A stretch of DNA of 64,000 nucleotides from a virus. Its lineage: Duplodnaviria; Caudoviricetes. The stretch lies in IMG/VR virus record IMGVR_UViG_3300028854_000488; one strand, written 5' to 3'. Positions within the stretch are counted from its first letter, which is position 1. The number at the start of each line of letters is the position of its first letter. The notes beneath the pieces are model-generated. The model saw only the letters and a list, made by a program, of their open reading frames with translations. It ran no database searches and was not told the DNA's origin. Position numbers and translations under genes: made by a program. This document shows positions 3,303-60,416 of the stretch, in pieces.

Positions 3303-6290
3303 ATGTCTAAAATAGATGAAAAATATATAGAATCATTAGGTACATTCACCCATGCATTAGAGGAAATAGTAGAATTATTGAAAGAGCAGCAAAAAACTGG
3401 TAAGTCAGATGTAGTCAATGATTTTTTAAAAACTCCTATGGATAATTTGAGCCATGTTGTTAAAGATTTACAGAAAATTACTGAGCAAGGATTCAAAAAT
3501 GTTAGAGATGATAATCAAAAAATATTACAAAAAATAGATGGTATAAAGAAGCAAAAAGAATCTGGAATGTTTGAACATATAGAAGATCCTAAAAACAAAA
3601 ACAAAATTGTTGATGGTATCAAAGTTGTTGTTTTAATTGCAGCAGGTGTTTTAGCATTAGGATTAGCATTTAAAATAATAGGGAAAGTAGATTTTCTTTC
3701 TGTTATTGCATTATCCGCAGCGATGGTTGGTATGTCTATTGCTTATAATAAGATTGCTGATATAAAAAATTTAAAATATACTAACGTACTTTTAATATCT
3801 GCTATTATGCCATTAATGGCGATTGGATTAGCGTTATCTGGATATATATTAAAAAGTATGCCTGAATTTTCAATAATGCAATCAATATCTATTATGCTTA
3901 TTAGTACTGCAATGGGATTAGCAACTTATTTTATAATGAAATCAATTTCTAAGATTAGTATATCATCAATAAAAATGATACCATTACTTCCTTTGATTTT
4001 ACCAATGATAGCTTGGGGTATTGTAAAATCTTCACAAATTTTAAAGAATGTAGAGAAGATGTCATTTGCTCAAGTATTATCAGTAGGTATGATAGGATTG
4101 GCTTTGGGCGTAGCAACATTTGGTATTTCAATTGCATTGAAAGGATTAAAAAATGTAACATATAAAGAAATGTTGGCATTGCCATTTATGATACCATTAA
4201 TTGCTGGAGGTATTGTTTTGGCTAGTGAAATATTTAAAGGTTTTATTCCAATCAGTAATCCATTGGATTTATTAATTGGTAGTGCTGTTATTGGATTATC
4301 ATTATTGTTTTTTACTCCTGCAATTTATTTTTTAGGTAAAATGAAATTCGCTGATGTTCTTACTGGAGTCCTTATGATTTTACCTATGGCTTTTGCAATT
4401 ACACAATCTAGTATAATTTTTAGTAAATTTATACCTCTTAAAGATCCATTAAATATAGTTTTAAGTACATTAGCAATGGGATTGTCTATATTGATTTTTA
4501 CTCCTGCAATTTATGTTTTAGGTAAAATGTCTATCGAAGATTTACTTATTGGTATAGGTGGAAGTATATTAACTTCTATCGCAATTGTTGTTATAGCTAA
4601 TATATTTTCATCATTACCTACTAAAATGATTACTCCAGATTTTATGTGGACCTTATCTGCTGGATTAGCAGTGGGTGGATTCGCACTTATTGCTACTGTG
4701 GTTGGATTATTTGCTGGAACTGATCCATTTTTTTGGATTGGTCTTGCTGCAATTTTAGCTGTTGCAGGTACAATTGTAATAGTTTCTTATATGTTACAAG
4801 CAGGAAATTATACTAAATATCCGCCGTTAGATTGGGCATTAGGTGTTGGAGGATCATTAATAGCATTTAGTTCAGCTATGGTTATTGCATCAGTTGGAGG
4901 TATTGCTAGTGCAATATCAAAAGTATTTACAGGTGATGAAGATCCTTTAATTAAAATTGCTAATACTATGGTTGCAGTATCTTGGCTTTTACAAAACGGA
5001 AAATGGGAAAGTGGATATCCGAAATTAGAGTGGGCATTAGGAGTAGGTACTGCTTTTACAATGTTTGCTGCTGCATATGTTGCAATTACAGGATTACAAG
5101 GAATTAATAGAGTATTTTCATTTTTAACCCTACATAAATCTCAAAGTTTTAATGACTTTGTAATATCAGCGGCAAATGCTATGAAAACAGCAAATGCAGA
5201 ATTGTCAGGAGTTAATTGGGGAGCAGCAGGTAGTTATCCATCTAAGGATTATGCTGATGGAGTTGGTGGACTATTAAAATCATTTGCAGAAACATATGCA
5301 GTAGTATCTTTGGTAGGATCAAGTATATTTAGTATAAATCCTGAAAGTTTTGAAGTATTTGTTAAAAATGCTGCAAATTCTATGCTTGTAGCAAAAACAA
5401 TATTAGATTCTACAAATTGGACTAATGCTGGACATCCTACTAAAGAATATTCAGATGGAATTGGTAGCTTTCTTATATCAATGGCAACAGCATATTCTAA
5501 AGTTAATGACATTGGAATTATGCGTATTCTTGCTTCATTACTTGATGTTGGAGGTAAAATGTCAATTACAGATTTTGTAAGAGAATCTTCAACTGCTATT
5601 GTTTCTGCGTCTAATATATTATCAAAAGGAAATTTTACTAATATTCCAGATGCTACATATTTAACTAATTTTAATAATTTTTTAGTTTCAATGGCAAAAA
5701 ATATTAATGATTTTAATGTAAATATTAATGATTTAATGAATTTTACTAATAATTTAGGTATGTTATCTCCATCATTAATGTTATTATCAAATGCAACACA
5801 AAATCCTTTATCAGATCTTTATATACAAGGTTTTGATAAATTGGTTAAAATATTAAATAATATGCCAGACAAAAGTATTCAAATACATAAATTGGCAGAT
5901 TCTTTTGTCGATCTTTCTAATTCATTGAAAGATATCACAACTTTTGATAATTTATCAAAAGTATCCGCTAGCGTTGTTTTATTGAGTGCAGTTGATGATG
6001 CAAAATTACAAGTAATTCTAGATAAATTGAAAGATAATCAAGATACAATAAAAACAATTTATGGTAATTCATCAGCAACTCCAAATTTAGTTCAAACTAT
6101 TGGTAAAGCTTTTACTTCATTATTCGGAGACGATAAAATAGAAGCTAATAAAAAAGCAAATGAGCCAATTGTTGTTACAACTACAATTGAGCCTCAATTT
6201 TATACTGGTATAACAGAAATGATAAGTTTATTAAAAGGAATTAAAAATTCATTAGATAAACCAACACCAGCACCAAGTTTTCATAGATAA
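3303..6290 (+). CDS. Tape-measure-like protein with many hydrophobic segments
   Basis: 995 aa; long Ala/Gly/Ile/Leu-rich hydrophobic repeats (PL..L..S..G..L..FTPA.Y.LGKM) flanked by coiled-coil ends. Confidence 0.55.
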   Translation: MSKIDEKYIESLGTFTHALEEIVELLKEQQKTGKSDVVNDFLKTPMDNLSHVVKDLQKITEQGFKNVRDDNQKILQKIDGIKKQKESGMFEHIEDPKNKNKIVDGIKVVVLIAAGVLALGLAFKIIGKVDFLSVIALSAAMVGMSIAYNKIADIKNLKYTNVLLISAIMPLMAIGLALSGYILKSMPEFSIMQSISIMLISTAMGLATYFIMKSISKISISSIKMIPLLPLILPMIAWGIVKSSQILKNVEKMSFAQVLSVGMIGLALGVATFGISIALKGLKNVTYKEMLALPFMIPLIAGGIVLASEIFKGFIPISNPLDLLIGSAVIGLSLLFFTPAIYFLGKMKFADVLTGVLMILPMAFAITQSSIIFSKFIPLKDPLNIVLSTLAMGLSILIFTPAIYVLGKMSIEDLLIGIGGSILTSIAIVVIANIFSSLPTKMITPDFMWTLSAGLAVGGFALIATVVGLFAGTDPFFWIGLAAILAVAGTIVIVSYMLQAGNYTKYPPLDWALGVGGSLIAFSSAMVIASVGGIASAISKVFTGDEDPLIKIANTMVAVSWLLQNGKWESGYPKLEWALGVGTAFTMFAAAYVAITGLQGINRVFSFLTLHKSQSFNDFVISAANAMKTANAELSGVNWGAAGSYPSKDYADGVGGLLKSFAETYAVVSLVGSSIFSINPESFEVFVKNAANSMLVAKTILDSTNWTNAGHPTKEYSDGIGSFLISMATAYSKVNDIGIMRILASLLDVGGKMSITDFVRESSTAIVSASNILSKGNFTNIPDATYLTNFNNFLVSMAKNINDFNVNINDLMNFTNNLGMLSPSLMLLSNATQNPLSDLYIQGFDKLVKILNNMPDKSIQIHKLADSFVDLSNSLKDITTFDNLSKVSASVVLLSAVDDAKLQVILDKLKDNQDTIKTIYGNSSATPNLVQTIGKAFTSLFGDDKIEANKKANEPIVVTTTIEPQFYTGITEMISLLKGIKNSLDKPTPAPSFHR

Positions 6291-19007: not shown

Positions 19008-20042
19008 TTATAATAAATGTGGTTTTGCTTCAGCAATTCCAGCATTTGTTACTTGAACCCATTTTGGATTATATTCAGATAGATTGTTAGCTCCACCATA
19101 AGATAATGCTGAACGAACTCCATCTATTAATCCTTCTATTACAAATTTGACACCACCTTTAAATGGTATTGTTGTTGACTCACCTTCCACGTTTCTTTCT
19201 GCTTGATTGTGAACAGTTTTTGTTTCTAATGAAGCAGAGCCTCTATAACGTTTATATAAGCCATTAGAACTCTCTATAATCTTTCCTGGTGACTCTTCTG
19301 TTCCAGCTAATAGAGAACCTAACATAACACTAGATGATCCTAATGCAAGAGCCTTAGAAATATCACCGCTATTTCTAATTCCTCCATCTGCCATAACAGG
19401 AACTTTAGCAACAGATATAATATCAATTAAACTTGTTACACTTGGTATTCCAAATCCTGTTTTTAACCTTGTTGTACATAACGCCCCATTTCCAATTCCG
19501 CATCTTAATCCATCAGCACCCCAATTCTGTAAATCAATTGCTGCTTCTGCTGTTGCAATGTTACCTGCAATTACATCAATATTTAAATTTAAGCCTTTAA
19601 TTGCTTCAATTGCTTTTTTGACATTTATATGATGTCCATGAGCAACATCAATAAGAATGACATTTACTCCAGATTTAATTAATTCTTTTGCTCTTTCTAA
19701 AAAATCTCCAGTTGATCCTACTGCAGCCATTATTGGAATTTTACGTCCAATAAAAGGATTATGAGAACTATTATTAATATAATTAGTTAATTTTTTAATT
19801 TCAACAATTTGATCTTCTATAGTCATAAATCTATGAATACATCCAATGCCTCCTAATTGAAACATTTTACATGCCATTTCATATTCACAAACTGTATCCA
19901 TTGGTGATGCAACTAATGGTATAATTAATTCATAATTTTTTGATAACTTTGTTATTAAACTAATTTCACTTCTATGTTCTACTTCAGAATATGATGGTAT
20001 GTTTTGAATATCGTCATATGTTAATGCTATATTATTTATCAT
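19008..20042 (-). CDS. guaB: IMP dehydrogenase / GMP reductase family protein, no CBS domain
   Basis: ASPMDTV, IDVAHGH, GNIAT, GIGNGALCTTR, ADGGIR, YRGSAS, EG motifs; GuaB vs GuaC not resolved. Confidence 0.85.
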   Translation of the reverse strand: MINNIALTYDDIQNIPSYSEVEHRSEISLITKLSKNYELIIPLVASPMDTVCEYEMACKMFQLGGIGCIHRFMTIEDQIVEIKKLTNYINNSSHNPFIGRKIPIMAAVGSTGDFLERAKELIKSGVNVILIDVAHGHHINVKKAIEAIKGLNLNIDVIAGNIATAEAAIDLQNWGADGLRCGIGNGALCTTRLKTGFGIPSVTSLIDIISVAKVPVMADGGIRNSGDISKALALGSSSVMLGSLLAGTEESPGKIIESSNGLYKRYRGSASLETKTVHNQAERNVEGESTTIPFKGGVKFVIEGLIDGVRSALSYGGANNLSEYNPKWVQVTNAGIAEAKPHLL

Positions 20043-32757: not shown

Positions 32758-32787
32758 AAAAAAGTCAGAATAATTATTCTGACTTTT
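32758..32787. terminator. Perfect palindrome, probable terminator
   Basis: AAAAGTCAGAATAATTATTCTGACTTTT. Confidence 0.7.
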
Positions 32788-34231
32788 CTATTGTATCTAA
32801 TTTAATTAATTTGTTTGTTTTTATAGCTGATCGTATGTCAAACTTATCAGAATGACAACCATTTTGAAATGGTACTTTTTTTCTCCATAAGAATTCGTCT
32901 GATATAATATTTTCAAATGATTTTCTCAAAATATACTTCAAGTGTTTTCCTTTACCGTTATTTTCATCACGATATTTTGGAGGTATTCTTAAACAAAAAT
33001 TCACAAAATTATAATCAGCAAATGGAGTTCTTGCTTCAATTGTACCTCCATACATCATAGATTTATTTAATGTACTCAGATTTTTATGATTTACATTTTT
33101 AACTAATGATATTCTTCTGTTATGATATTTTGTTTCATCATTCCAGCACCACCTTTTAACATCATCATATGATCCAAATATTTCATCACTAACATCTCCA
33201 CCAAATACTACTTTAAATCCTCTATTTGATATTTCTTTAGCTAATAATATTTGTGCAATAGCAAATGATAATTGAATATAATTTTCACTTTCTATCGCAT
33301 AAATTGTTTCTTGCAATTTTTCTTTCATTACATCAAATGGAATATCAATAATAACTAATTTTATATTATTTTCTTCTGAGAATTTTTTTGCAAAATATAA
33401 ATCATCTTTTAATATTTTTTTTGAATTTGTGGTGCCAGATATATTTATAACAAAACTTGTAATATTTTGTATTCTTTTAGATAATAAATATGTTATTAAT
33501 GTAGAATCTATTCCACCACTTAATATTGTGCATATGGGTACATCTGATACTAATTCATTATCAATAGCGGCATTTAGTAATCTTCTTATATTCGTTGTAT
33601 AATAATTTTCACCTTTGTCAATTTTGTCATAATTAATATTATCAAATGTAAAATATTTTGACATTTTTAATTCATTAGTATCTAAAAAATATTCTAATAC
33701 TGTACCAGGCTGAACATCACAAATATTATCATTGGTATCAAAACATTTTTTTTCACTGGCAAATATCAGTTTACTATCATACTTATAATGAAATGGTAAT
33801 CTTCCAATATAATCCCTACCTAAAACCAATTTATTTTTAATTTTATCCAAGATACAAAAACAAAACATACCGTCTAATGATGACATAAATTTTATTAAAT
33901 CGTCAGAATATTCTATATAAATTAATAATAATAATTCTACATCTGATTTATAATTATTAATATTGTATTTTTTTCTCAAATATGAAAAGTTATCAATAGT
34001 TCTATTAAATAATTCACCGTTAAAAACAATAACATAATTATCATCTTTACTATGAAATGGCTGATTTGAATAATCTGACAAATCAACAATAGATAATCTA
34101 TTATGACCCATAAATATATTTTTATATTCGTATATTTCTTGATAATCTCTTCCTCTGTGCTTAATTTTATCTAATGATATCTGAATATCTTCTTTAGATC
34201 CGAAACCATTTCCACCTACAATTCCACACAT
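32774..34231 (-). CDS. asnB: Asparagine synthase (glutamine-hydrolysing) family amidotransferase
   Basis: MCGI Ntn start, KHRG, GHNRLSIVD, FNGE, LSGGIDS, GGDVSDEIFG, EARTPF. Confidence 0.85.
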   Translation of the reverse strand: MCGIVGGNGFGSKEDIQISLDKIKHRGRDYQEIYEYKNIFMGHNRLSIVDLSDYSNQPFHSKDDNYVIVFNGELFNRTIDNFSYLRKKYNINNYKSDVELLLLIYIEYSDDLIKFMSSLDGMFCFCILDKIKNKLVLGRDYIGRLPFHYKYDSKLIFASEKKCFDTNDNICDVQPGTVLEYFLDTNELKMSKYFTFDNINYDKIDKGENYYTTNIRRLLNAAIDNELVSDVPICTILSGGIDSTLITYLLSKRIQNITSFVINISGTTNSKKILKDDLYFAKKFSEENNIKLVIIDIPFDVMKEKLQETIYAIESENYIQLSFAIAQILLAKEISNRGFKVVFGGDVSDEIFGSYDDVKRWCWNDETKYHNRRISLVKNVNHKNLSTLNKSMMYGGTIEARTPFADYNFVNFCLRIPPKYRDENNGKGKHLKYILRKSFENIISDEFLWRKKVPFQNGCHSDKFDIRSAIKTNKLIKLDTIEKSE

Positions 34232-41656: not shown

Positions 41657-41776
41657 ATACTTATTCTATTTTTATTATATATTAAAGAATATATGTTATA
41701 TTATTAAAAAATCAGAATAATTACTATTGATTTTTAATTTTACTAATTATTCTCAATACTAATATCTTCACAATAT

Positions 41777-44323: not shown

Positions 44324-46195
44324 TTAGTGAACTTCTTCGAAATCCACGTCATTTATGTTTTCAGATTCATCTTTATTAGTTGATGTACTTTCATTAGTTG
44401 ATTGATTATTATTCTCTTCGTAAAGCTTAGAACTTATATTTTGCCAAGTATCATTCAATTCTTTACTATATTTATCAATATCATCCAGATTTTGAGTTTT
44501 GTGAGCTTCTTTAAGATTATCAAGCTTAGAATTCAATTCAGTTTTATTTGATTCATTCAATTTATCGCCATATTCTTCAATTTGTTTTTCAGTTTGAAAA
44601 ATCATAGCATCTGCTTGATTAAGTTTATCAATCTTTTCTTTTTCTTTTTTATCTGATTCCGCATTTTGCTCAGCTTCCATCTTCATTTTTTCAATTTCTT
44701 CTTTTGTTAAAGATGATTTACCTTCTATTCTAATATCATTAGATTTACCAGTTGCTTTATCAACTGCTTTAACTGTCAAAATTGAATTGCTATCTAAACT
44801 GAATGTAATTTCAATCTGTGGTGTGCCTCTACGAGCAGGTGGAACATCAAGTGAAAATGTGCCTAAATGTTTATTGTTTTTGTATAGAGGTCTATCTCCA
44901 GTACAAACATTTACCTGTACGCTTGGTTGTGAATCTGATGCTGTACTAAATACTTGACTCTTAGATGTCGGGATCGTAGTATTTGCGGGAATCATGATAG
45001 TAGCAATTTCACCCATTGTCTCAATAGAAAAGTTCAACGCTGTTACATCAAGTAATAATATATCTGTATTATCTCCATTTAATACAGAACCTTGAATAGC
45101 GGCTCCAGATGCAATTGCAGTATCAGCATTTAGAGATTTATTTGCTTTTTTACCAAAGTATTTTTCAATACTTTCTACCAAATAAGGTATCCTGGTGCTA
45201 CCCCCCACTAAAATTATATCATCAAATTGTGAAATTTGTTTGTTACTTTTCTTAAGTGATGACATAATTAATTTCATTGTTTTATCAACATAAAATTGAA
45301 TTAATTGCTCAAATTTAGCACGAGTAATAATTTTATTTAAATGTCGTGGTTGTCCATCTACCGCCGTGATGTACGGTAAGTTGATTTCAGTTTGTGTTAC
45401 ACTAGATAATTCTATTTTTGCTTTTTCTGCGGATTCAGTAATACGTTGTAGTGCCATTGAATCTTTACGAATATCTACACCAGTTTCTTTTAAAAATTCT
45501 TCAGAAACATAATCAACAATTGCATCATCAATCAAATTTCCGCCTAAATCTAAATTACCGTCTGTTGATAGTACTTCATATAAACCATCTGATACCGTAA
45601 TTGCTGAGCTATCCGTTGTACAACCACCAGCATCTATGACCATATATAGTTTATCTGTCTTATCTTTAATATTTAATGCTGCTGCTGTTGGCTCTGAAAT
45701 AATTCTATCTACTTGAAACCCAGCTATTTCACCTGCTACCTTAGTGCAACTTCTTTCATCCGAATTGAAATAAGCTGGAGTCGTTATAATTACCGAGTCT
45801 ATTTTACAAGATAGATAATCTTCTGCTGTTTTTTTCATTTTTTGAAGAATCATTGCTGAAATTTCTTCTGGCGAATATACTCTATCACCAATTTTTACTG
45901 CTGCCTTACCATTATTATCAACTATATCATAAGGACGTTTTAGATGTTTAACTTCATCATATGTTCTACCAATAAGTCGTTTAATATTAAAAATGGTATT
46001 TTTAGGATTTAATGCTGCTTGGCGTTTAGCAGACTCTCCAACTTTAATTTCTCCTGTTTTTTGATCAAATGCTACGATAGAAGGAGTTGTTAAATTTCCT
46101 TCTGCGTTTGGTATAACAACTGCTACACCTCCCTCAATGATGCTTACTACCGAATTGTATGATCCAAGATCTACTCCAATAATTTTTTTACTCAT
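44324..46195 (-). CDS. dnaK: Hsp70 chaperone DnaK
   Basis: IIGVDLGSYNS, TPSIVAF, ITTPAYF, EPTAAA, ILVGGSTRIP, LLLDV, GTPQIEITF. Confidence 0.95.
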   Translation of the reverse strand: MSKKIIGVDLGSYNSVVSIIEGGVAVVIPNAEGNLTTPSIVAFDQKTGEIKVGESAKRQAALNPKNTIFNIKRLIGRTYDEVKHLKRPYDIVDNNGKAAVKIGDRVYSPEEISAMILQKMKKTAEDYLSCKIDSVIITTPAYFNSDERSCTKVAGEIAGFQVDRIISEPTAAALNIKDKTDKLYMVIDAGGCTTDSSAITVSDGLYEVLSTDGNLDLGGNLIDDAIVDYVSEEFLKETGVDIRKDSMALQRITESAEKAKIELSSVTQTEINLPYITAVDGQPRHLNKIITRAKFEQLIQFYVDKTMKLIMSSLKKSNKQISQFDDIILVGGSTRIPYLVESIEKYFGKKANKSLNADTAIASGAAIQGSVLNGDNTDILLLDVTALNFSIETMGEIATIMIPANTTIPTSKSQVFSTASDSQPSVQVNVCTGDRPLYKNNKHLGTFSLDVPPARRGTPQIEITFSLDSNSILTVKAVDKATGKSNDIRIEGKSSLTKEEIEKMKMEAEQNAESDKKEKEKIDKLNQADAMIFQTEKQIEEYGDKLNESNKTELNSKLDNLKEAHKTQNLDDIDKYSKELNDTWQNISSKLYEENNNQSTNESTSTNKDESENINDVDFEEVH

Positions 46196-47151: not shown

Positions 47152-48546
47152 TTAAAACTTTTTCATTTTTTGATAAGAAATAGCATTTCTTTCATTGCTA
47201 CGTTGTTTATCTTTCTTTTTTTGTTCTTTTCTATCTTTCCATGAAGTACCTTCAGATTTATCTTTGATGTTTAAGATTGGTTTAATTTTATCAAGAATTA
47301 ATGCAGTAGGTTCAATAGCTTTTTCAATCATTTCTGAGTTTTTGTAAGCAAATGGAGATTCATCAATTGTACTTTTACATACAGATGTTGAATAAACATT
47401 TTTCATTACTCTCTGAAAATCTTTTAAATCAATTGACTCTTTTGCTTTTGATCTTGACATCAATCTACCACTACCATGCGGAGCTGAATTATTCCAGTCT
47501 TCATTCGATTTCCCTTCACATATAAGTATTCCATCTCTCATATTGAATGGTATAATCATTTTTTCTCCAAGATAAGATGATATTGCTCCTTTTCTTATGA
47601 TAAAGTCTTTAAAGTCGACATAGTTATGTATTGAATTTATTTCTTCATCAAATTTTTTGATATTTAATGCTTTTTTTATCAAAGATAACATAGTTTTTCT
47701 ATTCCATAGAGCATATTGTTGTGCAAAAATCATATCAAATAGATATCCAATAAGATTTTCACCGTCTAAATATTCTTTATTAATATTAAGACTATATCTT
47801 GTTCTTAAATCTTTTATTTTTTTATCAATATCAGATTTTGGATAAGTGTTCATAACAATATCATCTAATTCCATATTATATTCTTTGGTAGCAACAAATA
47901 CTTTACCTCTTGCTACATTAGTCCAATATTCAGCAATTTTCAAACCAAAATTTCTTGAGCCAGAGTGAACTGTTATCCAATAATCATTAGTTTTATCTGA
48001 TTTGCCAAGTTCAATAAAGTGATTGCCTCCTCCTAATGTACCAATTGATTGAAAAAATTTACCTTCATCCATATTAATATCTTTCAATTTAGCTGTTAAC
48101 CATTTTTCATTATATGTTGGTGACTCATAAGAAGTTCCAAATTTCTCATTAAATTTTGCAGCAAATTTATCAGCAATTACTTGTACATCATCAAAAGGAA
48201 TATTTTTGAATACTATATCTTCATGCATATCAAATCCCATAGGAACATTTTCACGTATCAGATTATCAATTTTCTCTAAATCTAATGAAGTTTTACCTGA
48301 AAATCTTGCAGACAACATGCCACATCCGATATCTGTTCCGATCGTACTTGGTTTGATGTATTTTCCTAATTCCATGGAAAATCCAATGCAGATATCCGAT
48401 CCAACATGTGCATCTGGCATTATTCTAATTTTCAATCCATTAGATGTTTCTGAGTTTATAACATTGTATATTTGAGTAAATACTCCTTCTTCAACTTCAT
48501 CTATAAATATTTTAGCATCTGTATATTTACCTTTTAATTCTATCAT
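47152..48546 (-). CDS. rtcB: RtcB family RNA ligase
   Basis: IMPDAHVG, IGTDIGCG, GTLGGGNHFIE, VHSGSR, HNY, RKGA, SAPHGSGR, DESPFAYK. Confidence 0.95.
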   Translation of the reverse strand: MIELKGKYTDAKIFIDEVEEGVFTQIYNVINSETSNGLKIRIMPDAHVGSDICIGFSMELGKYIKPSTIGTDIGCGMLSARFSGKTSLDLEKIDNLIRENVPMGFDMHEDIVFKNIPFDDVQVIADKFAAKFNEKFGTSYESPTYNEKWLTAKLKDINMDEGKFFQSIGTLGGGNHFIELGKSDKTNDYWITVHSGSRNFGLKIAEYWTNVARGKVFVATKEYNMELDDIVMNTYPKSDIDKKIKDLRTRYSLNINKEYLDGENLIGYLFDMIFAQQYALWNRKTMLSLIKKALNIKKFDEEINSIHNYVDFKDFIIRKGAISSYLGEKMIIPFNMRDGILICEGKSNEDWNNSAPHGSGRLMSRSKAKESIDLKDFQRVMKNVYSTSVCKSTIDESPFAYKNSEMIEKAIEPTALILDKIKPILNIKDKSEGTSWKDRKEQKKKDKQRSNERNAISYQKMKKF

Positions 48547-56798: not shown

Positions 56799-57074
56799 AA
56801 AAATTTATTATTTTTTGTTATATATTAATAATTAAGTATATATTAATATTTACATATTGAATTTATTTGATTTATTTTTAATTTTTTGAATTTCTATTGC
56901 TTCTTTCGTAGCTAATATTAATTCATCTTCTGCTCCAGTAAAAATTTCACCTTCCCTTTTTAATCCGTTTTTTGGTTCAGATCCCATATATCTGGTAAAC
57001 ATAATAAGATTATTAGGTACATTATCATACTTAACATCATAATAGCATATAGTTTCTAATTTCGATGAAAAACA

Positions 57075-58528
57075 ATGAAATCAGTTTAAAATTAAGTTAA
57101 TAATTTTTGGGGTAACTACAAACCCCTCTATTCCGTCAATAAATATATTCGGAAATGCTTTTCTTAAAATGTTATAACTACCATTTACATCTGCGTTAAT
57201 TATCACATTTGAATTTTTTATTTTATATAAACCTCTACTTTGACGATATCCACTGAATATTTTTTCGGTTTTGTCTCCGTAAACTGGTATTAAATCTAAA
57301 TTCAAAAATGAAGATTTGCTAGTATAACTTTCTTCTTGTAATATAACTCTTATTCCTTCTTTTTCGCACTTATACGATAACATCGATATAAATCTACTAT
57401 GTGGAATCTGTATGAAATTCTGGTTGTTCTGTTTTGACATGTTGCATTCTTGTTTCCAACCATCATTTTTACCAATAACTAATTTTGATATGTTATTGAT
57501 AATTAATTCTTTAACTATTTGATTACTTGCTTTGTGTAGGTAATCATCTACTTTATTGTTTCGTTTATTTGTTAACTTCCTTATTCCTTTACTTGACTTC
57601 TTTTTATTAGTGATTTCAAGAACTGATTTCATTTCTGCTAAACGTTTATTGTAATATTGATTTGTAGATTTAAGTGGTCTACCATTAAAAATTAATGGTT
57701 GAAATCCTTTAATACTGGTCGTTAATGTCGCTAAATTATTTACACCTAAATCAATTGAAGCGTATCGTTTGTTGTCTCTGACTTGTTTCTTTTCATTATA
57801 GGTATAACACACTTCAATCACGTATTGATCAAGCCTTGGTATTATCCGAACGCAATCTATTGAATTAATATCAGTTAACTTGGTATAGAATTCTATTTTA
57901 GTACCTGATAACTTGATTTTGTTTGTTTTCTTGAATACTTTTCTTGATATCGCTTGATAATTATATGAAATAATAAATCTTCCTTTAATCTTATGAAGAA
58001 ATCCTGGTTGCTCTGGATAACTTTTATACTTTGATTTATTTTTACCATAATCTTTACATGAATTAAAGAAACTTTTGTAATTTCGTTGAACCTGAATGAT
58101 AGTTCCAGTCGCAACTTTCATTGGTAATCTCTGAAAGCACTCTTCAGACTTCATTACTTGATATAACTTATTTAAAGGATTATAATCAGTTGTTTCTAAA
58201 CCTTGTCTGATTAAATAAACTGATCGATTATAGATGTTCTTTGATTTAAAACATAATTCATCACACTCTTTATAATTTGAATGTGATTTAGTAATTATAT
58301 GTCTTTCCGTCAATTTCATGTATTAATACCTAATTTTAATGTATATATTAATAAAAATATATTATTTATTTATATTTTATAGAAATTAAATCATTAAAAG
58401 TTTAAATTAATTTATTATTTTTATTTAACTATTTATTTTAATTTATATGATAAATATTTACTATCTTAGTTTATTAAATCATTTGATGAAATAATTTCAT
58501 TGAAATTCATTATTTTTCATTCATTTAT
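57075..58528 (-). mobile_element. Non-autonomous IS200/IS605 (IS1341-like) element
   Basis: tnpB only, no tnpA; TTCAT at both junctions. Confidence 0.7.
57081..58319 (-). CDS. tnpB: TnpB RNA-guided endonuclease
   Basis: RuvC motifs SIDLGVNNLA, QEESYTSK, NADVNGSYNI. Confidence 0.9.
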   Translation of the reverse strand: MKLTERHIITKSHSNYKECDELCFKSKNIYNRSVYLIRQGLETTDYNPLNKLYQVMKSEECFQRLPMKVATGTIIQVQRNYKSFFNSCKDYGKNKSKYKSYPEQPGFLHKIKGRFIISYNYQAISRKVFKKTNKIKLSGTKIEFYTKLTDINSIDCVRIIPRLDQYVIEVCYTYNEKKQVRDNKRYASIDLGVNNLATLTTSIKGFQPLIFNGRPLKSTNQYYNKRLAEMKSVLEITNKKKSSKGIRKLTNKRNNKVDDYLHKASNQIVKELIINNISKLVIGKNDGWKQECNMSKQNNQNFIQIPHSRFISMLSYKCEKEGIRVILQEESYTSKSSFLNLDLIPVYGDKTEKIFSGYRQSRGLYKIKNSNVIINADVNGSYNILRKAFPNIFIDGIEGFVVTPKIINLILN

Positions 58529-58752
58529 ATGAAGATTTTGAATACCTTTATCATATTCAAAGTCAGCAATGATACCTACATTATTATCTAAAAAATCAAC
58601 AATAGATTCATATTTATTTTGTCTATCTTTGATGTCAATTATAACATAATCACCAATTTTAAATTTAGTATTTATATTTTCAAAAAATCTAATATATTTC
58701 ATTTATAACTTATATTTATTTATATATATTAAAAAAATAAAGTTATTTTTGT

Positions 58753-59379
58753 ATGTCAAAAAGTGAAACACCAACAGCAAAAGATTATAAAGAATCTTTT
58801 CAAGATAATATAGATAAATTAAAAAGTGAAATTGAAGATGCCCAAGAAGAATTAGATTTTGATCCAACAGAATTTTTTCCAGTAAATAATAATATTGATC
58901 TAAATTTCAAAATTGAAATGCATGATTATGAAAAAGATTTGGAAGTAATTAGAGAAGAGTCAAAAGAAACTCTTGAATGTATAGCAAATTTGTATTTATC
59001 TGAGGATATTATGTTAAATAAAAACATAAATAATATAATTAAAAATGATGCACTTGCAATTTCGGATTTAAAATTTTCAATATCATGTTCAAAAAGAGGA
59101 TTGATTAATTTAATGAAGCAAATAGATAATGGTAGCTCTGATGCAGATTTGTTTCAAGCAGTATCAATGTTTCAAAGAGAGATGAAAGATTGTATTGAAA
59201 CTTTATATAAATTACAAAAGAGTATGAAAGAGTTCTTTAAAGATCTTAAAGAAGAATTAAAAGAAATAAATATCGGAGATGCTGATTTAGAAATACATGA
59301 TAAATATAAAGATATGAGAATTTCGGATAGAGATATAAATAAATCAATTGATGCTGCATTAGCAAATAAGAAAAAATAA
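58753..59379 (+). CDS. Coiled-coil hypothetical protein
   Basis: 208-aa ORF followed by a terminator. Confidence 0.65.
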   Translation: MSKSETPTAKDYKESFQDNIDKLKSEIEDAQEELDFDPTEFFPVNNNIDLNFKIEMHDYEKDLEVIREESKETLECIANLYLSEDIMLNKNINNIIKNDALAISDLKFSISCSKRGLINLMKQIDNGSSDADLFQAVSMFQREMKDCIETLYKLQKSMKEFFKDLKEELKEINIGDADLEIHDKYKDMRISDRDINKSIDAALANKKK

Positions 59380-59690: not shown

Positions 59691-60416
59691 TTAATTTTTT
59701 TTATATTTATTTAATATAGATAATATTTGTTTATTATATTTATTAGAATAAAAATAATCATTTTTATTTACAATATCAAATACATTAAGTCCATCATCAT
59801 TAGGTTCTGGTTTAAAATTATAGTCTTTAGCATATAAATTTGCACCTTTCTGTAAAAGTTCATCAATAATTTTCAATCTCATATCAACATTATGATTTTC
59901 ACCAGAAAGTATATGATCTTTTCTTTTTAAATTTTCGACTGCTAGTATTAATGGAGTAGATCCATCTCTACTTATAGAATTAATATCAATATTAGGCTGT
60001 TCTAATAATAGTTCAAATACCTTAAATCCTTCTTCATTTAAACGTTTCTCATACACAATACTAGATAGTGGGCTAAAATTTGCATGTCCTTTTAAATTAA
60101 TATCAGCTCCTTTATCAATTAAATACTTACATACATCATAATTCTGATATGAACTTGATAAATTAAGTATATTATCACCAGCCAATTCAACATTTATTAT
60201 TTCAGGATGCGCATCAATAAGACTTATAACATTATTTGTTTCTTTATTCATAAGATATGTTCTACACTCATAATAATAACTATGAATATTTTTTTCTAAA
60301 TCTTTTTTCTGTTTTCTGCCGTCACTGTATTTCGTGAATGTTGATGTATAATCATCACCATAAAAATGTTCATCATTTGTAAATCCTTCAAATGATTTTA
60401 AATGTTTATTTTTCAT
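59691..60416 (-). CDS. Ankyrin-repeat protein with CTS-like N-terminus
   Basis: MKNKHLKSFEGF; KGADINLKG..SPL, DGSTPLILAV, LLQKGANL. Confidence 0.75.
   Translation of the reverse strand: MKNKHLKSFEGFTNDEHFYGDDYTSTFTKYSDGRKQKKDLEKNIHSYYYECRTYLMNKETNNVISLIDAHPEIINVELAGDNILNLSSSYQNYDVCKYLIDKGADINLKGHANFSPLSSIVYEKRLNEEGFKVFELLLEQPNIDINSISRDGSTPLILAVENLKRKDHILSGENHNVDMRLKIIDELLQKGANLYAKDYNFKPEPNDDGLNVFDIVNKNDYFYSNKYNKQILSILNKYKKN

Follow-up and report, generated by a model that had tools for sequence, protein, structure and literature searches.

A tnpB element of probable IS607 lineage, lacking a transposase, within a small conserved huge-phage gene

A tnpB gene inside a small phage gene

The window, by which we mean the whole 64-kb stretch of DNA that was analysed, comes from a huge phage and has a GC content of about 22%, which the base composition of the element described here matches. 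Several of its ORFs match PHROG families, and a 995-aa ORF matches only uncultured phage genomes of 630 to 735 kb. The window also encodes a full-length HSP70/DnaK (44324-46195), an asparagine synthase (32774-34231), an RtcB ligase (47152-48546), an IMPDH/GMP-reductase-type enzyme (19008-20042), and a phage-encoded ankyrin-repeat protein (59691-60416; Pfam Ank, 2e-10). A giant-virus/Fanzor reading, raised by the HSP70, the asparagine synthase, the ankyrin protein, and the low GC content, was dropped given the PHROG and huge-phage matches.

On the minus strand, a tnpB gene and its flanking sequences separate the two halves of a small phage gene, hereafter the host gene (Table 1). The 412-aa TnpB matches OrfB_IS605 (PF01385, 1.8e-24) and Cas12f1-like_TNB (PF07282, 1.6e-11), both above the Pfam curated cut-offs. 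A phmmer search of the PDB gave no match, and a profile search of the same database matched TnpB and Cas12f. In an alignment of 12 clade members (A4), the RuvC residues D190, E329/E330, and D377 are invariant, and the catalytic residues of the window protein are intact. RuvC-I reads D-L-G, and the RuvC-II glutamate sits at the alternative position, with G-K-N at the canonical one, an arrangement that has been described before (PMC10711439). The CxxC...CxxC zinc-finger motif is absent from the protein and from all 12 members of the alignment, so that the missing cysteines, rightly pointed out in an earlier note made on this DNA from its letters alone, are a trait of the clade and not a sign of decay. 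Because loss of the zinc finger is documented in large TnpB branches (PMC10691335), the missing C4 finger is also compatible with membership in TnpB. Judged by its domains, its RuvC triad, and the predicted guide RNA described below, the protein is a predicted OMEGA-type RNA-guided nuclease. Its best phage matches, at about 43 to 45% identity, are in Nodularia phages, Bacillus phage G, Prevotella Lak-A1, and Staphylococcus BE04, and no relative above 46% identity was found in the phage, IMG/VR, or GTDB collections.

The host gene is conserved in other phages. A library-wide phmmer search with its C-terminal half recovered 14 homologues (P0001 to P0014, best value 9.8e-24), most of which are 108 to 124 aa long and have the N-terminal half as well; the closest relative, P0015 (120 aa), came from a further search. 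Both P0015 and P0001 cover the two halves without interruption, and the nearest intact homologues are 72 to 79% identical. Two contigs that are syntenic with the window at about 74 to 79% DNA identity (L010 and L011) carry the gene uninterrupted and lack the element. In the window, the N-terminal ORF reads into the element and meets a stop at 58517, giving 61 aa. A metagenome scan with two host-protein sequences returned only P0001-type loci; IMG/VR held no close relative of either half, a search for longer proteins with the C-terminal half returned nothing, and the same phage lineage yielded no empty allele. Judged from these relatives, the insertion of tnpB into a small conserved huge-phage gene is real, the earlier note having rightly placed a TnpB element inside a phage gene, and the splitting of this gene by tnpB is a fairly ordinary event. 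As a separate observation, two of the homologues, P0009 (364 aa) and P0013 (1,983 aa), each match the C-terminal half in five separate stretches, and this half may be a repeatable domain.

The host gene appears to be broken in this genome, with no intron that would remove the element by splicing: region 56800-58800 has no match to a group I intron or to any other Rfam family, either at the gathering threshold or at E values up to 10. The TGA stop codon of tnpB is in frame with the C-terminal fragment, with no further stop between them (57081-57050). Frame-sharing is probably due to chance, as other ORFs of the window also end in TGA, and read-through fusing TnpB to the C-terminal fragment was dropped as a candidate since TGA is the normal stop in 7 of 41 long ORFs.

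Both tnpB and the host gene are preceded by the same short box. The motif TTWATATATA has 35 copies in the window where 11.3 are expected, a threefold over-representation, and 19 of them lie 13 to 25 nt before the ATG of an ORF, those of tnpB and the host gene included; further sites are, e.g., 56819-56828 and 41676-41685. Its number and spacing mark it as a phage-specific promoter-like or leader motif. The copy within the element had already been spotted in the earlier note and is indeed present.

Table 1. Features of the tnpB locus, listed in the direction of transcription (coordinates are window positions)
Feature	Coordinates	Strand	Basis
TTAATATATA box, 20 nt upstream of the host gene ATG	58723..58732	minus	motif count and spacing
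Host gene, N-terminal part, codons 1-53, ending in GG+TAT	58542..58702	minus	aligns with P0015 residues 1-54 and P0001 residues 1-52
GGTAT, last bases of the left flank, candidate TAM	58542..58546	minus	left flanks of relatives: GG+TAT, GG+TAC, GGTGG
Inserted element with revised ends, 1493 bp	57049..58541	minus	right end: covariance model; left end: gap-free joint and shared TAT
Element left end, 222 nt, non-coding, very AT-rich, several ATGAAW/TTCAT copies	58320..58541	minus	stops in translated frame
TTAATATATA box inside the element, 22 nt before the tnpB ATG	58342..58351	minus	motif count and spacing
tnpB, 412 aa	57081..58319	minus	Pfam matches, 12-sequence alignment A4, PDB profile matches
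3' part of the predicted omega RNA scaffold	57049..57134	minus	full-length match of covariance model R1
Host gene, C-terminal part, from codon ATA at 57050 to the stop at 56852-56850	56850..57050	minus	phmmer and alignments
Predicted guide/target, first 20 nt of the right flank	57029..57048	minus	directly after the scaffold end

Ends of the element and its predicted guide RNA

The earlier note had placed the insertion at TTCAT, a motif that is present on the minus strand at both proposed junctions (58533-58529 and 57079-57075). Removal of 57075-58528 (1,454 bp) does restore the frame and joins fragments of 58 and 74 aa (...GIQNLH-CFSSKLET...), yet the resulting 132-aa protein, when aligned with either P0015 or P0001, shows an insertion of 13 aa precisely at the joint. 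Joining GGT (58546-58544) to ATA (57050-57048) instead gives a protein of 119 aa with 95 of 120 identities to P0015, in which DK-GICY-YDVKY aligns to DK-DIYN-YDVKY with no gap at the joint. The alignment to P0015 has one gap column in this case, which is N-terminal, versus 14 for the TTCAT joint. There are 471 copies of TTCAT on the two strands of the window, and the left end of the element is full of ATGAA/TTCAT copies; the pair at the junctions is probably a coincidence. Thus, the location of a TnpB element within a phage gene stands, given the intact relatives, but its insertion at TTCAT probably does not: the intact gene that relatives carry has a junction unlike the TTCAT joint, an outcome that the earlier note had itself named as counting against its reading. 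The ends given there probably lie about 15 to 25 bases too far inward, and the TAM and guide derived from them are therefore probably wrong.

The right end follows from homology. A covariance model (R1), built from 12 relatives with the window left out, matches 57134-57049 over its full length (40.5 bits, E 2.6e-5) and sets the right end at 57049, which is 26 nt past the 57075 of the earlier note. The terminal motif GAAACTAT occupies 57056-57049, 32 nt past the tnpB stop, and the stretch leading from the stop to this motif resembles the right end of a related element (L004). AACTGA at the tnpB stop had been a candidate terminal motif and was dropped, as the covariance model and L004 put the motif 32 nt downstream. 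In the closest bacterial relatives (L020 to L025; 45 to 46% identity; Ktedonobacteria and other MAGs), the region after the stop ends in GGAAC-TAT or GGAAC-TGT, followed by divergence, and the homology of L021 to L024 breaks off exactly at the terminal motif. Two pairs of filled and empty phage genomes also put the right end at this terminal motif. Comparison of Staphylococcus BE04 (filled) with Terranova (empty), whose flanks are 99.5% identical, gives GGAACTGA followed by a run of A, and comparison of Nodularia kac68v161 (filled) with kac65v151 (empty) gives GAACGGT. The Nodularia pair fixes the right end only, with about 200 bp of the terL 3' end replaced and the left end not defined. The exact right-end DNA of the window element had no match in IMG/VR.

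The left end rests on protein colinearity, because the nearest intact homologues are only 72 to 79% identical, and it could be off by one or two codons. A target-site duplication of a 4-codon segment was considered for the junctions and dropped, the two DNA copies being dissimilar.

The predicted omega RNA scaffold runs from within the 3' end of tnpB to the right end of the element. It folds into three hairpins (57126-57109, 57107-57088, and 57084-57056) and a free tail, AACTAT (57054-57049), with a z-score of -2.59, and the tail is able to pair with the loop GTAGTT at 57119-57114. Pairing in the first hairpin is satisfied at 96% in a set of 16 sequences, three of its pairs being changed on both sides. 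The loop-tail pairing is 73% satisfied in the same set; two sequences have C-G in place of U-A, and one pair is changed on both sides. Covariation thus lends moderate support to a pseudoknot between the loop of the first hairpin and the tail, a feature of known omega RNAs (10.1101/2023.11.20.567912). The guide of such RNAs is the sequence that follows the scaffold end (PMC8612924, PMC10711439). As the scaffold ends at 57049, the predicted guide would be the first 16 to 20 nt of the right flank, starting at 57048. That TAM and guide can be read from the flanks, a general rule on which the earlier note relied, is established (PMC8612924; 10.1101/2023.03.14.532601). The guide named there (57074-57055) lies within the terminal hairpin of the predicted scaffold, and its TAM, TTCAT, belongs to a joint that conflicts with both the length of the relatives' gene and the scaffold end at 57049.

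The revised junctions share three bases. TAT at 58544-58542, the last bases of the left flank, recurs at 57051-57049 and is a candidate crossover core; the flanks are otherwise unrelated. The left flank and right end are GG+TAT and ACTAT in the window as well as in L024, GG+TAC and ACTAT in L021, and GGTGG and ACTGA in BE04. The left flanks of these four elements therefore have the form GG+T-R-N, and the same T-R is found at the right end. L020 (TG+TGT and ACTGT) is an exception, with TG and not GG before the core. The window element itself ends in ...AACTAT, not GG, whereas most IS607 members end in GG. A GG followed by a T-R core suggests an IS607 sub-lineage with a crossover core unlike the textbook GG. 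The T-R match at both ends fits a crossover by a serine recombinase at matching dinucleotides, which is how IS607 elements recombine, and the fixed nucleotide at the right flank of IS607 is part of the RNA scaffold (PMC10711439). IS607 targets GG, inserting within it or after it, and its TAMs are rich in G (PMC13565253); the recognition motif of the window element is probably GGTAT-like. In the occupied allele, the guide match is preceded by AACTAT and not by GGTAT, so that self-cutting would be avoided only if the GG is read. In L024, GGTAT is found immediately outside each end of the IS607 copy, left and right (3793-3800 and 1827-1834), which could be a 5-bp duplication or a coincidence.

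Lineage and comparison with known systems

The closest relatives of the element, at 45 to 46% identity, are IS607-type and not IS605-like, and some of them carry a serine-recombinase tnpA. In L001, L020, and L024, a tnpA of about 200 aa (MerR-HTH/resolvase type), recognized by eye from conserved motifs and not by Pfam, lies just upstream of tnpB. The window contains neither a tnpA of either kind, as the earlier note had it, nor a second copy of tnpB, and tblastn with three serine-recombinase TnpA queries found no tnpA remnant in the left end (58320-58541). With tnpA present in these relatives and none here, this copy appears to be a non-autonomous derivative. Membership in IS607 is consistent with the junctions, which have no terminal inverted repeats, no target-site duplication, and a short core matching at both. 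Membership in IS200/IS605 (IS1341 group) is at variance with the relatives' gene length and the scaffold end, with which the TTCAT ends conflict. We consider it likely that the element is an IS607-lineage unit of 1,493 bp, composed of tnpB and a guide RNA without a transposase, inserted after GG+TAT between codons 53 and 54 of the host gene, with its guide starting at 57048 and with homing as its inferred activity.

A complete IS607-type tnpA and tnpB unit (L001:2069-4600; IMGVR_UViG_3300045988_175598) lies directly upstream of an ORF that resembles a CHAP-domain lysin without its N-terminus, and it may interrupt a phage endolysin gene. The tnpB element of Nodularia phage kac68v161 (L014, 1998-3749; compared with L040, 900-1099) carries an apparent C-terminal remnant of a serine-recombinase tnpA, and the terminase large-subunit gene of this phage departs from that of the empty kac65v151 over about 200 bp at its 3' end.

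The IS607 family combines a serine-recombinase TnpA, TnpB, and an omega RNA, e.g., in ISXfa1 and in the IS607/IStron elements of C. botulinum. The window element resembles this family in that its closest TnpB relatives are accompanied by serine-recombinase tnpA genes, it is inserted next to GG, it lacks inverted repeats and a target duplication, the same short core occurs in its left flank and at its right end, and its predicted guide RNA overlaps the 3' end of tnpB and the right end. Unlike IS607, it has no tnpA, no zinc-finger cysteines, and no match to a RAGATH-18-type RNA; its right end is ...GGAAC-TAT and not GG, and its inferred motif is GGTAT-like and not GGG, TGGG, or AGGAG.

Solo tnpB genes are common in phage genomes. 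Those of Staphylococcus BE04/Quidividi, Nodularia kac68v161, Bacillus phage G, Prevotella Lak-A1, and the crAss-like phage csAssE-Sib belong to the same clade as the window gene (38 to 45% identity over the full length), lack a transposase, and share its terminal scaffold motif, and among near-identical Staphylococcus phages the filled and empty states form a precise polymorphism. Whereas these genes are mostly intergenic or at gene ends, the window copy interrupts a coding gene midway and has the upstream box of its own host phage.

The window protein also resembles the alternative-glutamate TnpBs (pro-Fanzor, TnpB2, and RIIr), with the glutamate six residues before the former zinc-finger position, G-K-N at the canonical position, NADxN in RuvC-III, and an association with IS607 (PMC10711439, PMC10691335). 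It differs from them in having D-L-G and not D-P-G in RuvC-I, in the loss of the zinc finger, and in being hosted by a bacteriophage and not by a eukaryote or giant virus. Since the host is a huge phage and RuvC-I is not DPG, the protein does not classify as a Fanzor.

Possible homing and alternative explanations

Homing between co-infecting phages is plausible for this element and would be the most likely reason for its persistence. In the proposed mechanism, tnpB would be driven by the phage-type upstream box, and TnpB with its guide RNA would cut phage genomes without the insertion, in which the guide match comes immediately after a GGTAT-like motif. Repair by recombination with an occupied genome would then copy the element in, and through such cutting and repair it could persist and spread without a transposase. 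Homing driven by TnpB has been demonstrated in bacteria for both IS605 and IS607 (10.1101/2023.03.14.532601; 10.1101/2023.11.20.567912), and transposase-independent spread in plasmids (PMC11870625). Homing into co-infecting phages is treated as theoretical only in a 2026 review (PMC13565253), and a literature search found no experimental test of TnpB homing in phages. The window bears no sign of recent spread, as there is no relative above 46% identity and no second copy.

The proposed outcome, in which an empty allele in a co-infecting genome is cut and the element copied in by repair, resembles that of phage homing endonucleases, whether intron-borne or free-standing (T4 I-TevI, SegF). Unlike these, the element would recognize its target by a guide RNA and a short motif, and not by protein alone; it has no intron, and the host gene is destroyed. 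With slightly less than even confidence, we tentatively extend this to a wider proposal: Cys-less TnpB/guide-RNA elements of the IS607 lineage without a transposase may be maintained in lytic huge phages by acting as RNA-guided gene drives, which are wired to phage promoters, cut insertion-free genomes during co-infection, and are then copied in. If this is true, they would be the RNA-guided counterpart of phage homing endonucleases. The element is a clean, testable case, as its target site, guide, and candidate motif are all readable from sequence.

An IS605/IS1341-type element of 1,454 bp, situated 3' of TTCAT and using TTCAT as TAM and 57074-57055 as guide, would explain why TTCAT lies on both sides and why the deletion reopens the frame, and AT-rich pentamer targets are typical of IS200/IS605 (PMC13565253). 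We regard it as very improbable. Compared with the two closest relatives, the restored protein then has an insertion of 13 aa located precisely at the joint, and the covariance model extends 26 nt past the proposed right end. The guide in this model makes up the last hairpin of the predicted scaffold, and the sequence after the tnpB stop is similar to the right end of L004. In addition, the nearest relatives are of the IS607 type, and TTCAT is very common in the window. The proposed right end would also itself end in the TAM, so that the nuclease would cut its own occupied allele. A TAM inferred from the nearest direct repeat can thus mislead; the repeat here is probably coincidental, and the revised ends emerged only via the gene length of the relatives and the guide-RNA model. 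The element lies in sense orientation inside a coding gene, and IS607-type IStrons exist (10.1101/2023.11.20.567912), so one might also picture it being spliced from the host mRNA to leave a functional gene. With the Rfam search of 56800-58800 negative at E values up to 10 and a left end that spans only 222 nt and is extremely AT-rich, we give this hardly any credence.

The homing reading has also to be weighed against two that accept the revised ends. An inert passenger that arrived once and no longer moves or homes, with a tnpB that is merely undecayed, is suggested by the lack of tnpA and of a second copy in the window, by the lack of any relative above 46% identity in the three collections searched, and by the broken state of the host gene, which points to its dispensability. 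This is unlikely, though not negligible, given that the 412-aa ORF is intact with all clade-invariant residues, the predicted scaffold structure is intact, the phage-type box stands at canonical spacing, and the phage-like base composition implies long residence under selection. Quite unlikely, too, is a nuclease that the phage has co-opted as a weapon against competitors or as a regulator, and not for the element's own spread. The phage-type box before tnpB predicts expression, as co-option would have it, and nuclease-dead relatives of TnpB are known as phage-encoded regulators (10.1101/2025.07.22.666180); the catalytic residues here are intact, however, so that the protein is not a nuclease-dead regulator. 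Moreover, the predicted guide matches only the insertion site of the element itself, and the L010 and L011 alleles differ from it in the motif and in the first guide positions.
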